Shown piece by piece: positions 8,290 to 51,073 of a DNA stretch of 64,000 nt. The notes beneath the pieces were generated by a model, which did not search any database, was not told the DNA's origin, and was given only the letters and a program-made list of their open reading frames with translations. The position numbers and the translations under genes are program-made. Source of the DNA: Candidatus Saccharibacteria bacterium CPR2. GTDB taxonomy: Bacteria; Patescibacteriota; Saccharimonadia; Saccharimonadales; QWHN01. Location: contig QWHN01000001.1 in assembly GCA_021404905.1 (NCBI GenBank), positions 258,810-322,809 of the forward strand, given 5' to 3'. Each line of letters starts with the position of its first letter. Positions within the stretch are counted from its first letter, which is position 1.

Positions 8290-9192
8290 ATGCCAGAATT
8301 GCCAGAAGTAGAGACTATAAAAAGAGGCTTAAAAACCAGGGTTGTCGGCAAAGCGATTCGAAGCATAAAAGTACTTGAGCCAAAAAGTGCTTTTTTCAAT
8401 AAAGAAGACGAAAAATTTGCGATCAGTGAGATAAGTAAGATTAAAAGACGCGGCAAAGTATTAATTTTAAATCTTGCTAATGGATATTCTTTAATGTTTC
8501 ATTTAAAAATGACAGGTCAGATTGTGTTCGATGGCGCTAAACAGGAAAAAGAAATAAGAAGAAATAGGGAATATGAAATCCGTTTTGCGGGTGGACACCC
8601 GACTAGCAGTATGGCAGGCGAGCTGCCGGATAAAAGCACCCGTGTAATCTTTGAGCTTGATGATGGTTCGAAGCTGTTCTTTAATGATCAGCGCAAATTC
8701 GGATGGGTCAAAATAGTGCCTACAAAAGAAATAGTTAAGGACTCGTTGATAAAAAAGATGGGTCCGGAACCGGAAAAATTAACTGATAAACAAGTAAAAT
8801 CCTTGGTGAAAAACAAAATAAAAAACAGTTCAAGGATGATAAAATCCATAATTTTAGATCAAAATATCATTGCTGGCGTAGGTAATATTTATGCAGATGA
8901 GGCGCTTTTTTTCGCTCGAATACACCCAGAAACCAGAGGTAGAGACTTAACTGAATACAAAATTGATTCACTGTTGGATGCAGTAACGAGTGTGCTGAAA
9001 ACTGCTACTGGGCATGGCGGCACCAGTTTTACAAATTATGTAAAAGTTGATGGAGCGAAAGGCAGGTATCTTGAAAAAGCCTGGGTGTTTAGGCGAGAAG
9101 GTAACCCATGTAAAAGGTGTGGAGCGACTATTAAAAAAATACGGGTTGGAGCCAGAGGAACACATTATTGCCCGAATTGCCAAATTAAATAA
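8290..9192 (+). CDS. mutM: formamidopyrimidine-DNA glycosylase (Fpg/MutM)
   Basis: N-terminal MPELPEVE catalytic signature (Pro2/Glu3), H2TH region and C-terminal zinc finger (CKRCG…HYCPNCQ). About 30 aa longer than typical Fpg. Confidence 0.9.
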   Translation: MPELPEVETIKRGLKTRVVGKAIRSIKVLEPKSAFFNKEDEKFAISEISKIKRRGKVLILNLANGYSLMFHLKMTGQIVFDGAKQEKEIRRNREYEIRFAGGHPTSSMAGELPDKSTRVIFELDDGSKLFFNDQRKFGWVKIVPTKEIVKDSLIKKMGPEPEKLTDKQVKSLVKNKIKNSSRMIKSIILDQNIIAGVGNIYADEALFFARIHPETRGRDLTEYKIDSLLDAVTSVLKTATGHGGTSFTNYVKVDGAKGRYLEKAWVFRREGNPCKRCGATIKKIRVGARGTHYCPNCQIK

Positions 9193-9213
9193 AAAAGGCT
9201 GTAAAATATAGGT

Positions 9214-10137
9214 ATGGTAATTGGGTTAATCGGTCCAAATAGTTATGCCCTTTTCGAATCAGTTAGTTCTACAATCAGAGATTTTACTAGCAAGCATGGG
9301 CAAGGCAGCGTCATTAAAATGAATGCTGATGAAATTGAAGTGCCTGATCTAATATCTGCTTGCATGGAACAATCTCTATTCGCGAGCAAGCAACTAGTTG
9401 TGCTAAGAGATGTTTCGCAGAACAGTATTTTAAAAACAAAACTCAGCGAGATCATCGAAACTTTGCCAAACTCAACCACTCTTTTAATTTATGATTCTAG
9501 CCTCAAAAAAACCGACAAGTTAGCTAAACAAATAGAGAAAACAGGAGAACTTATATATCGGCCCTTGCCATCTCCATATGAACTGAAAACCTGGGCCAAA
9601 TCTCAAGCCAAAGAAAATAACGCTCAAATTGAAAGTGATGCAGTTGACGAATTAATAAAAAGGGTAGGAGAAGATCAATGGCGAATAAAAGAAGAGATTA
9701 AGAAACTGTCTTTGTATGATCAAAATATTAATAGAAAAAACGTGGCTAAACTTGTAGAAATAACCCCTCAAGAAAATATTTTTCATATGCTTGATTGTAT
9801 ATTAAAGGGAGATTATAAAACCGCGCTAAAAAAATATGAACTTTTAAGAGAGATGAAGCTTGAAGCTCAATATGTGTTTTCCATGCTAATCTGGCAAGCG
9901 CATAATGCCGCGTTGGTTGCCTATGCCGATAACAAAAATACGCAAGAAATTTCTGAAGAGGCCGGTGTTTCTTCGTATATCGCTCAGAAGATTAAACAAA
10001 TGCTCAGCAAAGAGCCAAAAAATAAGATCAGACAGATTATTAATAAACTTATAGAAGCAGATATTTTACTTAAGAAAACGGCAAATAATCCGGATCAGGT
10101 TGTAAAAAACGTGATCCTGAGAGTTTGCAGGATTTAG
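9214..10137 (+). CDS. holA: DNA polymerase III delta subunit (HolA-like)
   Basis: 307-aa ORF whose N-terminus (LIGPNSYALFESV) resembles HolA; size and an AAA+ lid-like C-terminus fit. The assignment rests on weak pattern similarity only. TAAAAT lies 6 nt upstream of the ATG. Confidence 0.5.
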   Translation: MVIGLIGPNSYALFESVSSTIRDFTSKHGQGSVIKMNADEIEVPDLISACMEQSLFASKQLVVLRDVSQNSILKTKLSEIIETLPNSTTLLIYDSSLKKTDKLAKQIEKTGELIYRPLPSPYELKTWAKSQAKENNAQIESDAVDELIKRVGEDQWRIKEEIKKLSLYDQNINRKNVAKLVEITPQENIFHMLDCILKGDYKTALKKYELLREMKLEAQYVFSMLIWQAHNAALVAYADNKNTQEISEEAGVSSYIAQKIKQMLSKEPKNKIRQIINKLIEADILLKKTANNPDQVVKNVILRVCRI

Positions 10138-18389: not shown

Positions 18390-18656
18390 TTACGCATAGA
18401 GTATAGATGTTAGGAAACAGCAATTAGGAAATAGGAATTAGTTTTTAAAAATATACTATTTTCTATTTCCCAATTGCTAGTTTCTAGTTGCTAATTCCCA
18501 ACTTCTAGTTTTCAATTTTCATTCGCTTGGTAGCGAATCAATTTCCAAATTCTTTTTGCTAGTTTCCTAATTTCTAATTTCTAGTTGCCAATTCCTAATT
18601 GCCAATTGCTATTTTCCAGTTGCTAGTTACTAATTCCTGGCCCAATACTCTATACT
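18390..18656. repeat. AT-rich intergenic spacer built from reiterated short oligomers (TTCCYAATT, TTCTAGTT, TTGCYARTT)
   Basis: 267 bp of visibly reiterated 7-9-mers between RNase J and ftsK. It ends in AATACTCTATACTGTGCTT-ATG. Confidence 0.6.
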
Positions 18657-26607: not shown

Positions 26608-27664
26608 ACCTAAATTCAACGACATCATCAGGTTGCATCACGTAAGTCTTGCCCTCTGTTCGGACTTTGCCGTCGCTTTTTGCTTCAGAACGAGAACCGT
26701 ATTTTATTAAATTTTTATAATCTATAACCTCCGCCGCAATAAAACCCTTTTCAAAATCCCCATGAATCACACCGGCAGCTTGAGGAGCCGTAGAACCTTT
26801 TTTAATAGTCCAGGCACGTACTTCCTTATCTCCCGCGGTTAAATAACTCTGTAGCCCTAAAGTTTTATAAGCGGCATGGATGAGCTGGACTAGGCCTGAT
26901 TTATTTTGGCCTAAACCTTCAAGCAACTCTTTTGCTTCATGTTCGCTCAGCTCCTGCAATTCTTGTTCGACTTTCGCGCTCACAAAAACAGATTCTGATG
27001 GTTCGACTAATTTGGATAATTCTTGTTTTTTAGCTTTGTTGCCCAAGTCACTTTCACTGATATTAAACATATAAATAACTGGTTTTGTAGAGAGTAGTTG
27101 TGAAGATATGTCTGACAATTTTTTGGTATGATTTGGTAATTTTCCACTCTCAAGAGAGTTTTTAATAGATTCAAGTTCTTCAATTTCTTCTTTAATCTTT
27201 GGGTTGGCTTTTGCTTCTTTCTGCTTTTTGGGTAATACTTTCTCGAGCGTTTGCAAATCGGCAAGCATGAGCTCGGTATTTATAATTTCTATGTCTTCTT
27301 TGGGGTGGACGCGGTTTGCTACATGAACCACGTTCCCATCGTCAAAAGCCCGAACTACGTGGCAAATTGCTTGACAGTTTCTAACGTTTGCTAAGAATTG
27401 ATTTCCCAAGCCCTCGCCCTTGCTGGCACCGGCAACTAAGCCAGCAATGTCTACAAAAGTGACTGTCGCTGGTTTTATTGGTGCATTATTGTATATCTCT
27501 GATAACTTTTCTAATCGAGAATCAGGTATTGGAACAATACCAGTGTTTGGCTCAATCGTGGCAAAAGGATAATTTGCCATTAAAATGTTATTTTTAGTCA
27601 GGGCATTAAAGAGGGTAGACTTGCCAACATTGGGCAAGCCAACAATACCGATACTTAAACTCAT
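26597..27664 (-). CDS. ychF: ribosome-binding ATPase YchF (Obg family) with C-terminal TGS domain
   Basis: G1 motif IGIVGLPNVGKSTLFNALT, G3 DIAGLV, and the YchF coiled-coil insert. Confidence 0.92.
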   Translation of the reverse strand: MSLSIGIVGLPNVGKSTLFNALTKNNILMANYPFATIEPNTGIVPIPDSRLEKLSEIYNNAPIKPATVTFVDIAGLVAGASKGEGLGNQFLANVRNCQAICHVVRAFDDGNVVHVANRVHPKEDIEIINTELMLADLQTLEKVLPKKQKEAKANPKIKEEIEELESIKNSLESGKLPNHTKKLSDISSQLLSTKPVIYMFNISESDLGNKAKKQELSKLVEPSESVFVSAKVEQELQELSEHEAKELLEGLGQNKSGLVQLIHAAYKTLGLQSYLTAGDKEVRAWTIKKGSTAPQAAGVIHGDFEKGFIAAEVIDYKNLIKYGSRSEAKSDGKVRTEGKTYVMQPDDVVEFRFNV

Positions 27665-27743
27665 ACTCGACTCATTGTAATAGAGAAAAAAGATATTTAC
27701 TATTCTCTCTGTTTTTTAAGCAGAGAATCACGAAGCCCGTTTT

Positions 27744-27775
27744 TGTGTCCGATCGGACAAGAAACTGGGCAAATT
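27744..27775. promoter_or_regulatory. palindromic element TGTCCGATCGGACA followed by CTGGGCAAAT (copy a of three)
   Basis: A 14-bp perfect palindrome read directly from the sequence. Copies b and c flank the gene at 39880-40383. This copy lies in the divergent ychF / 27825 intergenic region. Confidence 0.5.
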
Positions 27776-27824
27776 AGTGGGCTCCAAATTGACAAAGCGC
27801 TTATGAATTAACTATGCTTAAACT

Positions 27825-28493
27825 GTGAAAAAGGCTAAAGATGAGGATGGGATAATAAAAGGTAGTGCAAAGACCTCAATTTTTAGGCTTAAATCACTAC
27901 CCAAGAGTTCTAAGATCAAGAGTCAAGAAGATAAAGATGTAAAAATTCAACCAAAACAAAATAGTAGAAAAAACAAATCAAAAGCTAACCCAAAGCAAAC
28001 TGTTTATAAATTGATATTTTCAGTATTGTTAGTTGCAATATTAATTACTGTTTTCTTAGTAATATTAAATTCCCAAAAACCTCAGCCATCACATGTTACA
28101 GACGCATATATCTATGAAGAAAATTTTCGAGACGCCAGATCACTTAGCATATCAGGTAAATATTCAGAAGCTGAAGAAAAAATAAGTTATATGCTTTCAA
28201 AAGAAAACGATGCAAATCGCAAAAAAGAGTTGCTTAGTCTGTTGGGGGCTAACCAAGCTAATAACAAAGAATATGATAAGGCTATTGAATCATATCGCCA
28301 GGTGGAGCAGCTAGAAGTAACACCCAGTTATGCAACTTTGTCCTCTATTGCGAAAACTGCCGAATTAAGCGGCAACAAAGATCTGGCAATACAATATTAC
28401 GGGAAGGTAATAGACCAACTAGATACAAACAGCTCTATGTACTTGGAAGAAAAAGCTTACTACGAAGATAAAATTAAAGAGTTACAGCAATGA
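27825..28493 (+). CDS. hypothetical membrane-anchored protein with TPR-like C-terminal region
   Basis: Lys-rich N-terminus, one TM (LIFSVLLVAILITVFLVIL) and helical repeats. Start ambiguous (GTG 27825 or ATG 27841). Confidence 0.4.
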   Translation: MKKAKDEDGIIKGSAKTSIFRLKSLPKSSKIKSQEDKDVKIQPKQNSRKNKSKANPKQTVYKLIFSVLLVAILITVFLVILNSQKPQPSHVTDAYIYEENFRDARSLSISGKYSEAEEKISYMLSKENDANRKKELLSLLGANQANNKEYDKAIESYRQVEQLEVTPSYATLSSIAKTAELSGNKDLAIQYYGKVIDQLDTNSSMYLEEKAYYEDKIKELQQ

Positions 28494-38586: not shown

Positions 38587-38611
38587 TCCGCTGGCCAGCG
38601 GACCAGTTTTC
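38587..38611 (+). terminator. GC-rich perfect palindrome TCCGCTGGCCAGCGGA + T-run (putative pilC terminator)
   Basis: A 16-bp perfect palindrome followed by ACCAGTTTTC. A near-identical palindrome (TCCACTGGCCAGTGGA) lies after the GT2 gene at 57410-57425. Confidence 0.4.
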
Positions 38612-38975
38612 AAACAATTGTCGATTTCATATTATCAGAATTAATTTTGCGAGTTATAGCCTGTAGTATTAGCAATATTTCCTTGCATTCAAGTAAACAG
38701 TTATCTATTAGTTTATTATTTGGTTCACATGTTTTTAATATTTTTAACCAGTATGTAGTTTCTTGTGCTTCTTTCTTTGCAATATATATTTTGTTTCGAA
38801 AATCTTTTTTAGAACTGGCATTGTTCGCTTCTGCATAGTTAGCGCCAATACTTGTACCCGAACGAATTAATTGAGTAACTATTGGACGGCTAATAATATC
38901 TATTTTTGCAGACCTACACAGTGTGATGATATCTTGCCCGAACTTTATAGTTCTATCTTCAAGTTGATACTTCAT
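38610..38975 (-). CDS. four-helix-bundle protein (TIGR02436-like)
   Basis: LIRSGTSIGANYAEANNASSKKDFRNKIYIAKKEAQETTYWLKIL matches the family signature. Paralog of the ORF at 22727-23098. Confidence 0.75.
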   Translation of the reverse strand: MKYQLEDRTIKFGQDIITLCRSAKIDIISRPIVTQLIRSGTSIGANYAEANNASSKKDFRNKIYIAKKEAQETTYWLKILKTCEPNNKLIDNCLLECKEILLILQAITRKINSDNMKSTIV

Positions 38976-39148: not shown

Positions 39149-39667
39149 ATGTATAAAAATCTAAAATCTAAAGAAGAAGGCTTTACTATCATCGAGGTAG
39201 TCTTAGTGCTTGCCATAGCAGCCTTGATATTCCTGATTGTGTTTCTAGCCCTGCCTGCGTTACAAAGATCACGACGCGACACTCAACGTAAGGACGATGC
39301 GGGTAAAATCGTATCGTCACTAGAGACTTATGCCTCGGCGAATAATGGTGATTATCCTGCGGCGGCCACGGGTAATGCTAATACAAACTTCGGTACGAAC
39401 GGTGCTGGTAACTCATTTTGGGAACGGTATGTTGATATTGACGATACCGTAAGAGATCCATCTACAGGTAATCCGTATACTATAGAAGTAGGAGTAAATA
39501 ATGGAGATGCGTCAGCTGATTTTGCTGCTCCGAGGGGGAATGAAGTTGTTTATGGTCTCAATGCTCGATGCAACGGTGAATTTATGCAAGCTGGTGGTGG
39601 CAACAGGGAAGTGGCCGTTGTTGTAGAGATGGAAAACGGACAAGCGTTTTGCCAAGACAACAGATAG
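39149..39667 (+). CDS. pilA: type IV (major) pilin
   Basis: Class III signal with prepilin cleavage/methylation motif (KSKEEG|FTIIEVVLVLAIAALIFLIV) and Glu+5. It has its own strong promoter and terminator, and a C-terminal Cys pair (C…C). Confidence 0.8.
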   Translation: MYKNLKSKEEGFTIIEVVLVLAIAALIFLIVFLALPALQRSRRDTQRKDDAGKIVSSLETYASANNGDYPAAATGNANTNFGTNGAGNSFWERYVDIDDTVRDPSTGNPYTIEVGVNNGDASADFAAPRGNEVVYGLNARCNGEFMQAGGGNREVAVVVEMENGQAFCQDNR

Positions 39668-39686
39668 TCTAGTCCTGGATGGTTAA

Positions 39687-39722
39687 GGAGCCTGGTGTTG
39701 AAACTGGGCTCTTTTCTTTTCA
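39687..39722 (+). terminator. rho-independent terminator after the pilin gene
   Basis: GAGCC-N13-GGCTC stem followed by TTTTCTTTT. Confidence 0.65.
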
Positions 39723-39829
39723 TTCTTTAGTATTACTCTGCGCCAATCGTTCCCTCACACCAATTCAAGCCTAATAATAACCAGCTCAATAATCAACCTA
39801 TATCAAACACGCGCTACCTTGCCCATTTA

Positions 39830-39861
39830 CTTGTCCGATCGGACACAAAACCGGGCAATAT
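39830..39861. promoter_or_regulatory. palindromic element TTGCCC-N6-TGTCCGATCGGACA-N6-GGGCAA (copy b)
   Basis: 14-bp perfect palindrome plus an outer inverted TTGCCC/GGGCAA pair. It lies just 3' of the gene at 39880-40383. Confidence 0.5.
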
Positions 39862-39879
39862 AAAAAGAAATTAAACTAG

Positions 39880-40383
39880 CTATTTCTTGTAAATATCAAG
39901 TTTATGGGCTTCATATACATCTATGTAGTCTTCAAGACCTAGCTCTTTAATCTCTGATAAAAGTAGCGTCCTAAAGTCATATTTACTTATCCATACGCTC
40001 TTTTGGGCTTGCGAAAAACGAAATTCCCTAAGTACAGCCCTAAATCTTCGTCTTTTCCATCTTTCAGACTCTGGAATGTCAAATGTTACCATAAGGCATA
40101 CATTCTCTTTTAGCAATTTTGGTTTATAAATCTTTGCTTTTTGCAGTCCTTTATTAGTTAGTCTAGGTATGCCTTCACGATCCAGCTCAACTAGTCCACG
40201 TTTTATGGCTTGATAATAGGAGTTCTTAATTGTTTTTGATTTACGTTTAGATATTTTTTCAAGATCATAGAAGAATTTACTTGGCACAAATGCCAGCTTT
40301 AAATTAGCTTCAGTGTAGGGAATAAGTGCGGATAAAACATAGGTCAAAGCTGATTTACTTCTAGGCTTGTTGTTGTGGCTCAT
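39880..40383 (-). CDS. PaaX-like protein: N-terminal winged-HTH-like region + C-terminal Cas2-like (ferredoxin-fold) domain
   Basis: The C-terminal ~90 aa follow the Cas2 core pattern (LMVTFDIPESERWKRRRFRAVLREFRFSQAQKSVWIS … EDYIDVYEA, compare LVLVTYDV…[25 protein letters not shown] … EDSIRIY). No CRISPR array or cas1 is in the window. It is flanked by palindrome copies b and c. TACTAT lies 6 nt upstream of its ATG. Confidence 0.55.
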   Translation of the reverse strand: MSHNNKPRSKSALTYVLSALIPYTEANLKLAFVPSKFFYDLEKISKRKSKTIKNSYYQAIKRGLVELDREGIPRLTNKGLQKAKIYKPKLLKENVCLMVTFDIPESERWKRRRFRAVLREFRFSQAQKSVWISKYDFRTLLLSEIKELGLEDYIDVYEAHKLDIYKK

Positions 40384-40402
40384 AAAAACATAGTAACACT
40401 TT

Positions 40403-40434
40403 TATGTCCGATCGGACATAAAAGTGGGCAAAGT
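40403..40434. promoter_or_regulatory. 28-bp perfect palindrome ACTTTTATGTCCGATCGGACATAAAAGT followed by GGGCAAAG (copy c)
   Basis: Read directly from the sequence. It overlaps the -35 region of the Cas2-like gene's promoter, in the divergent region shared with pilD. Confidence 0.55.
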
Positions 40435-40508
40435 AACTGTTAGTTACTAGGGTTGTAGATAGATTATAAAATGGTTCGTTACGGGGCATTATGCTAACAT
40501 AATAGCTA

Positions 40509-41360
40509 ATGGAATTTGTTGTACTCATAGTTTTGGGGCTATGTGCTGGCAGTTTTGCCAACGCTGCCATTTGGCGAATCCACGAGCAAAGCAAATTAAA
40601 GTCAAAAAAACCTGCAAATTGGTCCGCTGACCAGCGGATGAAAACTGAAAACTTGAGCGTCCTGAGGGGCCGTTCCATGTGCCCAAACTGTAAGCACCAG
40701 TTAGCCGCAAAAGACTTAGTGCCAGTTCTTAGCTGGGTATCTCTTGGCGGAAAGTGTCGATATTGCAAAAAGCCGATATCGATCCAATATCCATTGGTAG
40801 AGATAACAGGAGCATTATTGTTTCTTGCAAGCTATATCTGGTGGCCATTTGGTTTGAGCGGTTTTGTGGATTACGCAAGATTTGGCATTTGGCTAGTTGT
40901 GCTTACCGGACTTTTAATACTGTTTATCTATGATTTAAAGTGGCTGATTTTGCCCGATGCCGTTACTTTGCCCCTGATAGCCTTGGTTGTCTTTGAAATA
41001 GCGTTCCGCGGTATATTTCAGGAAGGCCCGGAAGCTGTTCGCGGTGCGATATTAGGAATGCTAACCATCGGCGGTTTCTTCTATGTTTTATTTGTTGTAT
41101 CAAAAGGAAAATGGATAGGCGGAGGCGATGTAAAACTTGGCATCTTACTGGGGCTTTTACTGGGCTGGCCGGCAGCTCTCGTTGGTATGGCCATTGGTTT
41201 TTACAGCGCAACTATAATAGTGATTGTATTAATGCTTCTAAGGGTTGTAAAACGCTCTCAGCACATTCCTTTTGGGCCATTTCTGATAGTTGGAGCAATA
41301 ATAGCTATGCTCTTTAGCGAGCAAATAATCGGGCTATACTACGAATTACTCTTGTACTAA
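40509..41360 (+). CDS. pilD: prepilin peptidase / N-methyltransferase PilD (A24 family)
   Basis: N-terminal TM, tetracysteine motif (CPNCKHQ…CRYCKKPI) and polytopic membrane domain with conserved Asp residues (LILFIYDLKW; GGGDVKLG). Confidence 0.88.
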   Translation: MEFVVLIVLGLCAGSFANAAIWRIHEQSKLKSKKPANWSADQRMKTENLSVLRGRSMCPNCKHQLAAKDLVPVLSWVSLGGKCRYCKKPISIQYPLVEITGALLFLASYIWWPFGLSGFVDYARFGIWLVVLTGLLILFIYDLKWLILPDAVTLPLIALVVFEIAFRGIFQEGPEAVRGAILGMLTIGGFFYVLFVVSKGKWIGGGDVKLGILLGLLLGWPAALVGMAIGFYSATIIVIVLMLLRVVKRSQHIPFGPFLIVGAIIAMLFSEQIIGLYYELLLY

Positions 41361-48775: not shown

Positions 48776-51073
48776 ATGAATATCCAAAAATTATCAACAA
48801 AAAACTTAGTTCGATTGCTTTGGGTAATATTTGTCTTGGCTTTGTTTGCTACTGCATTTGTATTTCAGAACAGGCTTGATGTAAACGCCGCATGTGCTGG
48901 TTCTAACTATGGCAGTGGTACAACGCAAATAAATGTTAGCGGAAGTGGTACGCATAGGGTTTGGGCAAGAGTTATGCCATCAACATCTACCGGCAATTCG
49001 TTCTTTATGCAAATAGATAGCGGTACGTGTATTGAAGTTGGTACGAACAATTCGGTAACTGCTAACCAATGGACTTGGATAGATTATAAAAATAGTAATG
49101 AATCCACCAAAAACGATGTTAGTTTAAGCACTGGTAATCATACACTCAGTATTTATGGCAAAACAGCAAATCTAAAAATTGATAGGATAATAATGACAAG
49201 TAGCACATCTTGTGTTCCGACAGATAAAGGTGATAATTGTGTATCCGTGACTCCTCCACCTGTTAGCGGAGATTCAAGTGAAGTTTGTGGAACCTGGGTG
49301 ATCCAACAAGTTTCAAGTGTATCAGAGTTAAATAGTCTAGAGTCTAAGATTAAAGACGCATTAGATTTGCCGGGAGTTGTTGGTTTCTCTGTTAGGTTTC
49401 CTTGGAACGCAGCTGATATATCCGGTTCTGCTACTACTCATCCTCTACTTGATAAGGCAAAACAAATTGCCGATAGCAAAGGGAAAGCCCTTTCAATTCG
49501 TTTTATGGCAGGCCGCCACGTGCCGACAAGAGTATTTGATGCCGGGGCTAAATACTATCTCTTTAATAATCAAAAAGTTGGTATACCCTGGGATTCAAGC
49601 GACCCTAATATATACCGCAAAAATCAGATCTGGTTAGACGAATTCGACAAATATACAGCCAAACTTGTTAACTGGTCTAAACAAAATAATGTCAAGCTTA
49701 TTCATCTTTCATGGTGGGCCCAAGATTGGGCGGAATTAAATCATGGCAAGGAGGTCCGCGCTTTGCCTGGGTATTCAAAAAGCAACTGGCTTTCAGGCCA
49801 CAAAGAAATAATTGATATTGGTGCAAAGTATGCAAACGATGCTTCTAGTGGCGTAATTATGGAATTGCCGATGTCTGGTTATGGTCCTGTTGCCACGGAC
49901 ATGTCACCTGCTTTAGCGGATCATATTGTATCTAAGGTTGGTCAAAATACCGACAAATTTTTCATCCAGGCCAATGGTTGGAGCAACTCTCAGGAATGGG
50001 GAGCACCGGATACTACAACTGAAGCGTCATTTGATCAAATTTGGGCTAAGCCTGTAAAACGGGGCTTGCAGGCGATCCAACCAGATGGGTATGATTGGAC
50101 AGCAGCCTATGCGCGCCTCGGTGACCCATCAAAATTACCAACGCAGTCTAGTAAAGATTCAGTAAACGCGACTTATGCTGAAGTTTATCTACCAAGCTTT
50201 TGGCAAATACCAGGCCCTATGGGGAATAACACCCAAGTTAAAATAGACCAATTAAAATCTGAAATCGCAAAGTTTGGGCAAAAATGTCCAACCGGACAAC
50301 CGCCACAAGACACTACACCCCCAAACATTTCGCTTTCAGCCAATCCCACTACTGTGACTGTTGGTAGCAACGTCTCGCTAAACGCTACGGCGTCAGATAA
50401 CATAGGTGTGACTAACGTTGAATTTTATGATGAAAGCACGTTGATTGGCAGCGACTCTTCATCTCCATATACGCTTACCTGGAATACTACAGGCGCGTCA
50501 ACCGGAGCCCATAGTATGACCGCTAAAGCGTTTGATATGGCCGGAAACACAAAAACCAGCACGGCGGTGTTCGTAACCGTACAAAACTCTACGCCTTCGG
50601 ACACAACGGCTCCGAGCGTAGCACTTACTAGTCCTTCTGCCGGCGCGACTGTTTACACCGGCAGCGCTCAGACGCTAACGGCAACCGCTTCGGATAATAC
50701 AGGTGTAACCAAAGTTGAGTTCTATAGAGCAGGACAATATCTACTCGGTACGGCTACCAGAAGCTCGGGTACGGCGCAGAACGGTACCTGGACAGCCAGT
50801 TGGTCACCAACTACCGCGGGCTCAGCGCCATTGACAGCCAAAGCCTACGATGCGGCCGGTAATGTTACCGATTCATCTATTGTTACTGTTACTATATCTG
50901 ATCAACCCCCACTAGTTCCTGCAGATTTGAATAATGACGGTAAAGTAGATATCTTTGATCTTTCAATACTGCTATCTAAATGGAATACGAGCGACCAAAC
51001 CGCGGATATTAACAATGACGACAAGGTTGACGTGTTTGATCTTTCCATCATGCTGTCGAGCTGGTCTTCGTAA
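48776..51073 (+). CDS. secreted multidomain protein: CBM-like beta-sandwich + TIM-barrel-like (putative glycoside hydrolase) region + two Ig-like repeats + C-terminal dockerin
   Basis: Signal peptide present. Two ~95-aa tandem Ig-like repeats (…ASDNIGVTNVEFYDES… / …ASDNTGVTKVEFYRAG…). The C-terminal pair of Ca-binding dockerin segments reads DLNNDGKVDIFDLSILLSKW and DINNDDKVDVFDLSIMLSSW. Confidence 0.6.
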   Translation: MNIQKLSTKNLVRLLWVIFVLALFATAFVFQNRLDVNAACAGSNYGSGTTQINVSGSGTHRVWARVMPSTSTGNSFFMQIDSGTCIEVGTNNSVTANQWTWIDYKNSNESTKNDVSLSTGNHTLSIYGKTANLKIDRIIMTSSTSCVPTDKGDNCVSVTPPPVSGDSSEVCGTWVIQQVSSVSELNSLESKIKDALDLPGVVGFSVRFPWNAADISGSATTHPLLDKAKQIADSKGKALSIRFMAGRHVPTRVFDAGAKYYLFNNQKVGIPWDSSDPNIYRKNQIWLDEFDKYTAKLVNWSKQNNVKLIHLSWWAQDWAELNHGKEVRALPGYSKSNWLSGHKEIIDIGAKYANDASSGVIMELPMSGYGPVATDMSPALADHIVSKVGQNTDKFFIQANGWSNSQEWGAPDTTTEASFDQIWAKPVKRGLQAIQPDGYDWTAAYARLGDPSKLPTQSSKDSVNATYAEVYLPSFWQIPGPMGNNTQVKIDQLKSEIAKFGQKCPTGQPPQDTTPPNISLSANPTTVTVGSNVSLNATASDNIGVTNVEFYDESTLIGSDSSSPYTLTWNTTGASTGAHSMTAKAFDMAGNTKTSTAVFVTVQNSTPSDTTAPSVALTSPSAGATVYTGSAQTLTATASDNTGVTKVEFYRAGQYLLGTATRSSGTAQNGTWTASWSPTTAGSAPLTAKAYDAAGNVTDSSIVTVTISDQPPLVPADLNNDGKVDIFDLSILLSKWNTSDQTADINNDDKVDVFDLSIMLSSWSS

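Follow-up and report, generated by a model that had tools for sequence, protein, structure and literature searches.

The 64-kb window analysed here, i.e., the whole stretch of DNA from Candidatus Saccharibacteria bacterium CPR2 to which all positions refer, contains a type IV pilus locus with a gene for a small protein of 167 amino acids (aa) on the minus strand (39880-40383, with an ATG start codon). The gene is flanked by a type IV pilin gene with an N_methyl motif (39149-39667) on one side and by pilD (40509-41360), which encodes the prepilin peptidase, on the other. The product of the 167-aa gene is identical to DYH10_01610 of this bacterium. It is a PaaX-like protein that consists of a predicted winged helix and a Cas2-like domain and ends without the PaaX_C effector domain. 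Six nucleotides before the ATG (40381-40383), a −10-like hexamer TACTAT can be read on the minus strand (40390-40395; ATAGTA on the plus strand), which gives the gene a putative promoter of the leaderless type, as was already noted in the original prediction made for this locus. On the other side, a terminator scan located the terminator of the pilin gene at 39685-39714. The 167-aa gene is flanked by an inverted repeat of 36 nt, which is 83% complementary, and it is present in one copy only, no second member of its family having been found in the window.

The flanks of the gene are marked by the 14-bp palindrome TGTCCGATCGGACA. Exact copies are found at 27746, 39832 and 40405, i.e., three times in the window, and the latter two bracket the gene. 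When up to two mismatches are allowed, four matches are found vs. 0.09 expected, and none of 100 shuffled sequences reached this number. In all three exact copies, the palindrome is followed by GGGCAA at a distance of exactly 7 nt, which refines the earlier figure of within about 8 nt, and three of the four CGATCG hexamers in the window are located inside these sites. The upstream site (40392-40431, without strand) contains a perfect palindrome (CACTTTTATGTCCGATCGGACATAAAAGTG) around CGATCG, which spans 30 bp (40397-40426) and not the 28 bp given originally. Its distal outer arm is GGGCAA (40426-40431), whilst on the proximal side the −10 box takes the place of the outer arm or is merged with it, the TACTAT hexamer overlapping this arm. 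The centre of the site lies 28 bp ahead of the ATG. The downstream site (39819-39858, without strand), located between convergent genes and past the pilin terminator, begins 22 bp from the stop codon and is conserved in two relatives with the same pilus neighbourhood (L001 and L093). It is a full dyad, TTGCCC-N7-TGTCCGATCGGACA-N7-GGGCAA, and the unit therefore measures ~40 bp.

The third copy is a solo site (27733-27772, without strand) of the form AAGCCC-N7-TGTCCGATCGGACA-N7-GGGCAA, located between the divergent genes ychF (ATG at 27664) and a gene for a TPR protein (GTG at 27825). Its right edge lies 17 bp upstream of TTGACA, a −35-like hexamer. The site is also present in a relative (L091), within a tract of ~730 bp (27071-27800) that covers the 5′ half of ychF and the intergenic region. 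Since this tract is 100% identical between the two genomes, the conservation of the site says nothing about selection. Around the tract, identity to L091 is only 80-93%, with a background of 85-90%, and the tract ends ~30 bp past the palindrome; it looks like a recent recombination tract. A core copy with two mismatches (TGTCCAACCGGACA, at 50270-50298 with the match at 50285) was seen within a 765-aa open reading frame (48776-51073), where GGGCAAA precedes the core at a different spacing; this copy is probably due to chance. A scan for TGTCCGATCGGACAN7GGGCAA of a collection of genome contigs that excluded the source genome gave one match, in a metagenome-assembled genome of Actinomycetes, which is chance level.

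The classification of the 167-aa protein is based on both sequence and fold. Residues 98-161 match PF20803 (PaaX_M, "PaaX protein central Cas2-like domain") with an E-value of 5.9e-15 and 55.6 bits vs. a curated cut-off of 24, and the same family is matched by a paralogue in L081, by the protein of L090 and by nearly all homologues. The likeness to Cas2 of the middle domain of PaaX is already on record in Pfam. The Cas2 models themselves score ~1 bit under their curated cut-offs (22.8 vs. 23.8 for PF09827 and 23.2 vs. 24.5 for TIGR01573). An AlphaFold model, built on 42 homologues and with a pLDDT of 85, consists of four helices and a β wing followed by a β-α-β-β-α-β domain. When this model was used as the query in a Foldseek search of the PDB, PaaX of Escherichia coli W (8a39) was the top match, over both domains and 180 columns, followed by Rv0674 (3kfw) and then by dozens of Cas2 chains and VapD. 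The winged-helix region corresponds to the N-terminal half (40138-40356, minus strand), as defined by the secondary structure of the model and by Foldseek matches to PaaX, MarR and PadR chains, and the Cas2-like domain, on which Pfam, AlphaFold, Foldseek and the alignment agree, to aa 95-160 (39904-40101, minus strand). Hence, the original proposal of a PaaX-like protein with a Cas2 fold is borne out.

The motifs reported earlier are all present in the Cas2-like domain, i.e., FDIPE (aa 101-105), KRRRFR (110-115), QKSVW (127-131) and EDYIDVYEA (151-159), and the signature FDIPE...R..R...QKSVW aligns with YDV...QRSAF of Cas2. Residues D102, E105, R111, R115, Q127, S129, W131 and E158 are invariant in the family. 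D102, at the end of strand β1, is found in 42/42 sequences and corresponds in the alignment to the Asp in YDV of Cas2. For PaaX_C, to which homology had been considered, no Pfam match was obtained; as only 7 residues follow the Cas2-like domain, this effector-binding domain is absent. Tandem Repeats Finder revealed no CRISPR-like array in the window, in agreement with the original prediction, and no cas genes are listed in any neighbourhood table of the homologues examined, although cas1 was not searched for systematically across the window. A function as Cas2 in the CRISPR sense was rejected on the basis of the array-free window, the absence of cas genes from these tables and the sub-cut-off scores of the Cas2 models. 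With respect to defence systems, PADLOC returned only weak Cas2 models for the protein. In a comparison of the window with L001, a 90%-identical relative, the winged-helix half of the gene (40088-40383) showed 62-86% identity in 50-nt windows and the Cas2-like half (39888-40087) 86-100%; the gene as a whole is 85.6% identical and more diverged than its flanks (91-94%).

The protein belongs to a large family. A word-based search yielded 129 relatives, nearly all of 150-200 aa and mostly labelled Saccharibacteria, and a full profile search, counted in clusters at 50% identity, yielded 82 at E < 1e-30, 1,796 at E < 1e-10 and 4,925 at E < 1e-3. The flanking sites were surveyed in 80 metagenome loci and six further contigs. 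On both flanks, most genes in this survey have a palindrome with CGATCG or CGGCCG at its centre and with arms that differ between lineages (TGTCCGATCGGACA, TCACCGATCGGTGA, TGACGATCGTCA, TGTCCGGCCGGACA, GACGGCCGTC, CGCGCGGCCGCGCG, CTTCCGATCGGAAG and others). When unique homologue genes were examined without any selection on symmetry, CGRYCG was found at ≤100 bp upstream in 58 of 69 and at ≤100 bp downstream in 60 of 70, with a background density of 0.10 per 100 bp elsewhere. L001 has the two sites as in the window, and the pilus neighbourhood likewise. A 56%-identical homologue in a purine operon has CACGATCGTG upstream and TTGCCCC-N7-TCACGATCGTGA-N7-GGGG downstream. Distant members are bracketed as well: each side of the gene for a 190-aa paralogue in L081 bears a motif of its own, CACAATT-ACGCGATCGCGT-AATTGTG, and the gene for the 181-aa protein of L090 is flanked on both sides by perfect palindromes of 36 bp. 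The two-sided bracket is, therefore, a hallmark of the family and not of the locus in the window. Furthermore, the finding that homologues in unrelated neighbourhoods bear their own variant on both flanks supports, at the level of sequence, the proposed association of the palindrome with the gene. In L081 (8253-10495), and also in L083, two family paralogues, each with a distinct palindrome on both flanks, are located around a gene for an XerC/D-like tyrosine recombinase (8894-9832), and the main paralogue of L081 has two upstream copies of its own site. A tyrosine recombinase gene is also found at the end of the pilus locus in L001, L093 and L094.

Alignment of the sites on their centres revealed a composite anatomy. 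The fraction of complementary positions is 0.66-0.81 at ±4-7, drops to 0.45 at ±8, amounts to about 0.6 at ±9-12, where the spacer is nearly all A/T, rises to 0.78-0.90 at ±13-15, and declines to about 0.3 further out than ±20. At control CGRYCG sequences elsewhere in the same loci, it is about 0.25 at all positions. Thus, a site is composed of a near-universal centre (CGATCG in about 70% and CGGCCG in about 20-27%, with few asymmetric variants), inner arms that differ between lineages, an A/T spacer, and outer arms at ±13-17 that differ between lineages as well. Since the information content of the outer arms is low across the family, these arms are lineage-specific and yet symmetric, and they are common to the upstream and downstream sites of one locus. 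At the downstream sites, the spacers fall into A/T (13), T/A (15) and T/T (10) classes on the sense strand and are not consistent in their orientation. The outer arms are ~24-28 bp apart, which matches the geometry of the PaaX operator of E. coli, TGATTC-N27-GAATCA (PMC9493321). With respect to the gene, the upstream centre is located 20-34 bp before the ATG, with a mode of 29, and the downstream centre mostly 16-31 bp past the stop codon. In many homologues, the proximal upstream arm overlaps a TAnnnT hexamer, as it does in the window.

The best explanation for this arrangement, which we hold with moderate confidence on the strength of these comparisons, would be that the gene encodes an autorepressing, minimal PaaX-like factor with two flanking putative operators and a few solo sites. 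The winged helix would read DNA, whilst dimerisation is probably due to the Cas2-like domain. In such a dimer, the outer arms (here GGGCAA, with centres at about ±15 bp) would be read by the two winged helices, in the way that PaaX of E. coli reads the arms of its operator, and the conserved, CGATCG-centred inner palindrome would lie under the Cas2-like dimer. Presumably, the variable winged helix is thus paired with the variable outer arms and the conserved Cas2-like dimer with the conserved centre. As the upstream site covers the −10/−35 region of the gene's own predicted leaderless promoter, its occupancy would repress the gene. The downstream site may be an auxiliary site that serves as a loop partner or as a roadblock insulating the unit from neighbouring transcription, and the few solo sites, e.g., the one at 27733-27772, may be further targets. 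We infer binding, the division of labour between the domains, and repression alike. Autoregulation is favoured because the family of repressors is one that represses itself by promoter occlusion, because the upstream site has the geometry of that family over the gene's own core promoter, and because the variants of the site travel with the gene. In E. coli, PaaX represses its own promoter Px by blocking RNA polymerase (PMC9493321). Of the autoregulation proposed originally, the part that concerns the upstream copy fits, but a promoter role of the downstream copy is not supported, since this copy is located between convergent genes and beyond the pilin terminator.

The neighbourhoods of the homologues are varied and include pilus, purine, ATP synthase, murL/prfA, GGDEF/ychF and uvrA/exoI loci. 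In the purine operon of the 56%-identical homologue, the order of the genes is purE, purC, purB, guaA, the family gene and purA. The pilus neighbourhood was found only in relatives with a pilD gene at least 80% identical to that of the window, i.e., L001 and L093, and the co-occurrence of gene and palindrome among relatives, which was confirmed, does not extend to proximity of pilus genes beyond these two. L093, with a pilD gene 80% identical, contains the full site-gene-site unit. In the syntenic pilus locus of L094 (pilD 50% identical), the pilin gene is followed by pilD after a gap of 68 bp, with no family gene and no palindrome. Therefore, the unit is gained or lost as a block, and the link with pili is confined to the lineage of the window. 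Gene pairs that are at least 98% identical all share their flanks, neighbourhoods persist until nucleotide identity drops to about 75%, and no matches to phages or plasmids were found for the relatives; hence, recent mobility is not shown. Taken together, the site-gene-site layout points, as far as can be read from sequence, to a widespread, self-controlling gene unit and not to a pilus-specific regulator. The window and L001 do not align over a variable pilin segment (39257-39815), made up of the C-terminal part of the gene and the sequence 3′ of it, whilst both flanks of this segment are about 95.5% identical. BLAST homology resumes at 39816, at the outer arm of the downstream palindrome. 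This may be a coincidence; recombination boundaries near the sites were considered as evidence and set aside, because the whole region is a mosaic in which such coincidences are not compelling.

Several observations weigh against an autorepressing factor as the full explanation. For aa 1-95, no Pfam model, including that of the PaaX N-terminal domain, gave a match at E ≤ 10; the fold match to 8a39 and 3kfw does cover the N-terminal half, and a helix-turn-helix with a wing is present in the model. Distances between protein regions and those between inner or outer arms correlated at r values of 0.1-0.2 only, and the correlation was not clearly stronger for the recognition helix. A protein-DNA specificity code was dropped for this reason, and only anecdotal groupings, e.g., of NAYWRAQ with TGCAAT, are left. 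The solo sites in L033 and L057, located in a convergent gap and just after bacA, respectively, are not at promoters, so that a general placement of solo sites at promoters is not supported. About 86% of the members have a second site 16-31 bp past the stop codon, which is not explained by a promoter operator and which is as conserved across the family as the upstream site. Finally, perfect palindromes of 30-50 bp are in excess. Of 29 sites in which both the inner and the outer arms are symmetric, 13 are also symmetric throughout the spacer, vs. 0.6-3 expected, and the distribution is bimodal, which protein contacts alone would not predict.

These observations bear on the alternatives. The downstream palindrome might act mainly as RNA, i.e., as a 3′ stem-loop of the gene's transcript that functions in end formation or stabilisation or as a target of the Cas2/VapD-like domain, with only the upstream copy serving as a DNA operator. 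We consider this unlikely. In the downstream sites of 51 homologue loci, the symmetric positions that are non-complementary show G/T in 54 cases vs. A/C in 19 on the sense strand, and the G/T fraction of 0.257 was not reached in any of 2000 shuffles (0.190 ± 0.013). At upstream sites there is no such bias (22 G/T vs. 32 A/C). This implies that the downstream palindrome is transcribed, and it may matter as an RNA stem-loop. The tight spacing from the stop codon fits such a role, as does the strong folding of the sites as RNA (z-scores of −2.3 to −11.5), and the Cas2 and VapD relatives are called RNases in PDB titles. However, a mutation bias linked to transcription can also give an excess of G/T, and the outer arms and anatomy shared by upstream and downstream sites argue for one common reader of DNA. 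An intrinsic terminator was rejected, since the terminator scan does not call the downstream hairpin and no consistent U-tract follows it. The original prediction envisaged that the protein acts from the shared divergent region on both the minor-pilin operon and pilD, and that the site near ychF adds a small regulon; such a role is improbable. It is true that the upstream site lies in the region between the gene and pilD, with its centre 97 bp before the pilD ATG, that this arrangement is kept in L001 and L093, and that the regulator is encoded on the strand opposite to that of all pilus genes, so that binding at the sites could stop transcription from running on from the pilin gene into pilD. 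Nevertheless, homologues at ≤56% identity are found in other loci, the pilus locus of L094 exists without the unit, and the promoter-proximal sequence of pilD (TATGCTAA...GCTAATG), with its −10-like TATGCT and surroundings, is common to that unit-free locus and located well outside the site.

Alternatively, by analogy with known elements, the site-gene-site unit might be, or descend from, a selfish or recombination module, in which the palindromic ends act as hairpins or cruciforms that the protein, possibly as a nuclease via D102, recognises or processes, and of which the solo sites would be footprints or targets. This alternative, which develops the earlier suggestion of a mobile or cassette-like unit, is rather unlikely in our opinion. 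In its favour, inverted repeats enclose the gene in nearly all members, its neighbourhoods are unrelated housekeeping loci, and the unit is present or absent as a block, L094 lacking the gene and both sites. Solo copies are found in non-promoter gaps, the stems vary around a "loop", CGRYCG, that is nearly universal, the Asp of Cas2 is invariant, and L081 has two bracketed paralogues that flank a tyrosine recombinase gene. The excess of perfect palindromes fits as well. In the upstream site, the window differs from L001 at 6 of 18 spacer positions vs. 1 in the adjacent 65 nt of intergenic DNA, and these clustered changes yield the perfect palindrome of the window; on the sequence, they look like a hairpin-templated conversion. 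However, template switching, a mutational process of general occurrence, can convert quasi-palindromes without any element. Also, the shared flanks of near-identical genes, the single copy in the window, the rarity of solo sites (~one per 20-60 kb) and the lack of phage or plasmid matches argue against mobility, no target-site duplication was seen, and the empty site of L094 is without a footprint palindrome. A bolder idea, to which we assign a slim chance, is that the winged-helix and Cas2-like proteins of the candidate phyla radiation (CPR) are structure-specific readers, possibly nucleases via the invariant Cas2 Asp, of hairpin or cruciform DNA. The palindrome-gene-palindrome arrangement would then be a self-contained module, a Cas2-family analogue of REP/RAYT, that moves or recombines on long time-scales and leaves solo palindromes behind. 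If true, the repeat-gene-repeat unit would be a new kind of genetic module.

The family offers material for further work. To our knowledge, few recognisable regulators are present in CPR and Saccharibacteria genomes, and almost none has a known site. Here, the predicted cognate site of each member of a large family can be read off the flanks of its gene, which provides natural pairs of protein and site for testing DNA recognition of the PaaX type. The family also indicates that the Cas2-like domain known from PaaX occurs in a minimal form, with the Cas2 Asp intact and no effector domain, which bears on the relationship between Cas2, VapD and PaaX. Two features go beyond the logic of an ordinary operator, namely the conserved second site past the stop codon and the excess of perfect palindromes (30-50 bp). 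In a literature search, no description of this small family was found, nor a paper dealing with both PaaX and Cas2.

Some other features of the window may be mentioned. Within the pilus locus, a gene on the opposite strand between pilC and the pilin gene (38610-38975, minus strand) encodes a member of the 23S rRNA-intervening-sequence-protein family (PF05635, E-value 2e-17). Tandem Repeats Finder detected, at 18410-18638, short tandem repeats in a block whose nested periods are 7, 14, 21, 28 and 35 nt and whose unit is about TTCCTAATTGCCAA. The only RNA families recognised in the window are tRNAs, and a known RNA family was accordingly rejected as a reading.

Among known systems, REP/RAYT REPtrons and pdif modules also consist of one gene between palindromic inverted repeats, further copies of which occur on their own in intergenic DNA, and the ends of IS200/IS605 elements form a further analogy for palindromic hairpin ends. 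Unlike these systems, the unit described here has no Y1 transposase or Xer arms, is present in very few copies and shows no sign of recent movement. With Cas2 (PF09827, TIGR01573) and VapD, the protein shares the β-α-β-β-α-β fold and the Asp-containing signature, and many of its fold matches belong to these proteins. In contrast to Cas2, the domain is fused here to a DNA-binding domain, with no array in the window and no adjacent cas gene in the neighbourhood tables. Regulators of the Lrp/AsnC family have a similar size (about 160 aa) and combine a winged helix with a β-α-β-β-α-β oligomerisation domain, and MtbAldR (4pcq) is among the fold matches. However, no match to this family was found at the sequence level, and the C-terminal domain is here of the Cas2/PaaX_M and not of the RAM type.

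The closest likeness in overall architecture is to PaaX itself (8a39 of E. coli W; Rv0674, 3kfw; COG3327), in which a Cas2-like middle domain is likewise preceded by an N-terminal winged helix (a predicted one in the 167-aa protein). Two short inverted arms that are ~27 bp apart in the PaaX operator have their predicted counterpart in TTGCCC-N28-GGGCAA at 39819-39858, and as in PaaX, an operator, here the predicted upstream one, overlaps the regulator's own promoter (the putative TACTAT box in the window). In contrast to PaaX, the 167-aa protein is half the size and lacks the PaaX_C domain that senses phenylacetyl-CoA, a CGRYCG palindrome is located between the arms, and a second site is found past the stop codon. 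Moreover, no paa genes are located beside any of the loci examined, the neighbours being pilus, purine, ATP synthase, murL/prfA, GGDEF/ychF and uvrA genes. What is best filed as new in this comparison is the two-flank bracket as a hallmark of the family, the composite site, the conserved second site past the stop codon, and the minimal form of a PaaX-type factor that does without an effector domain.

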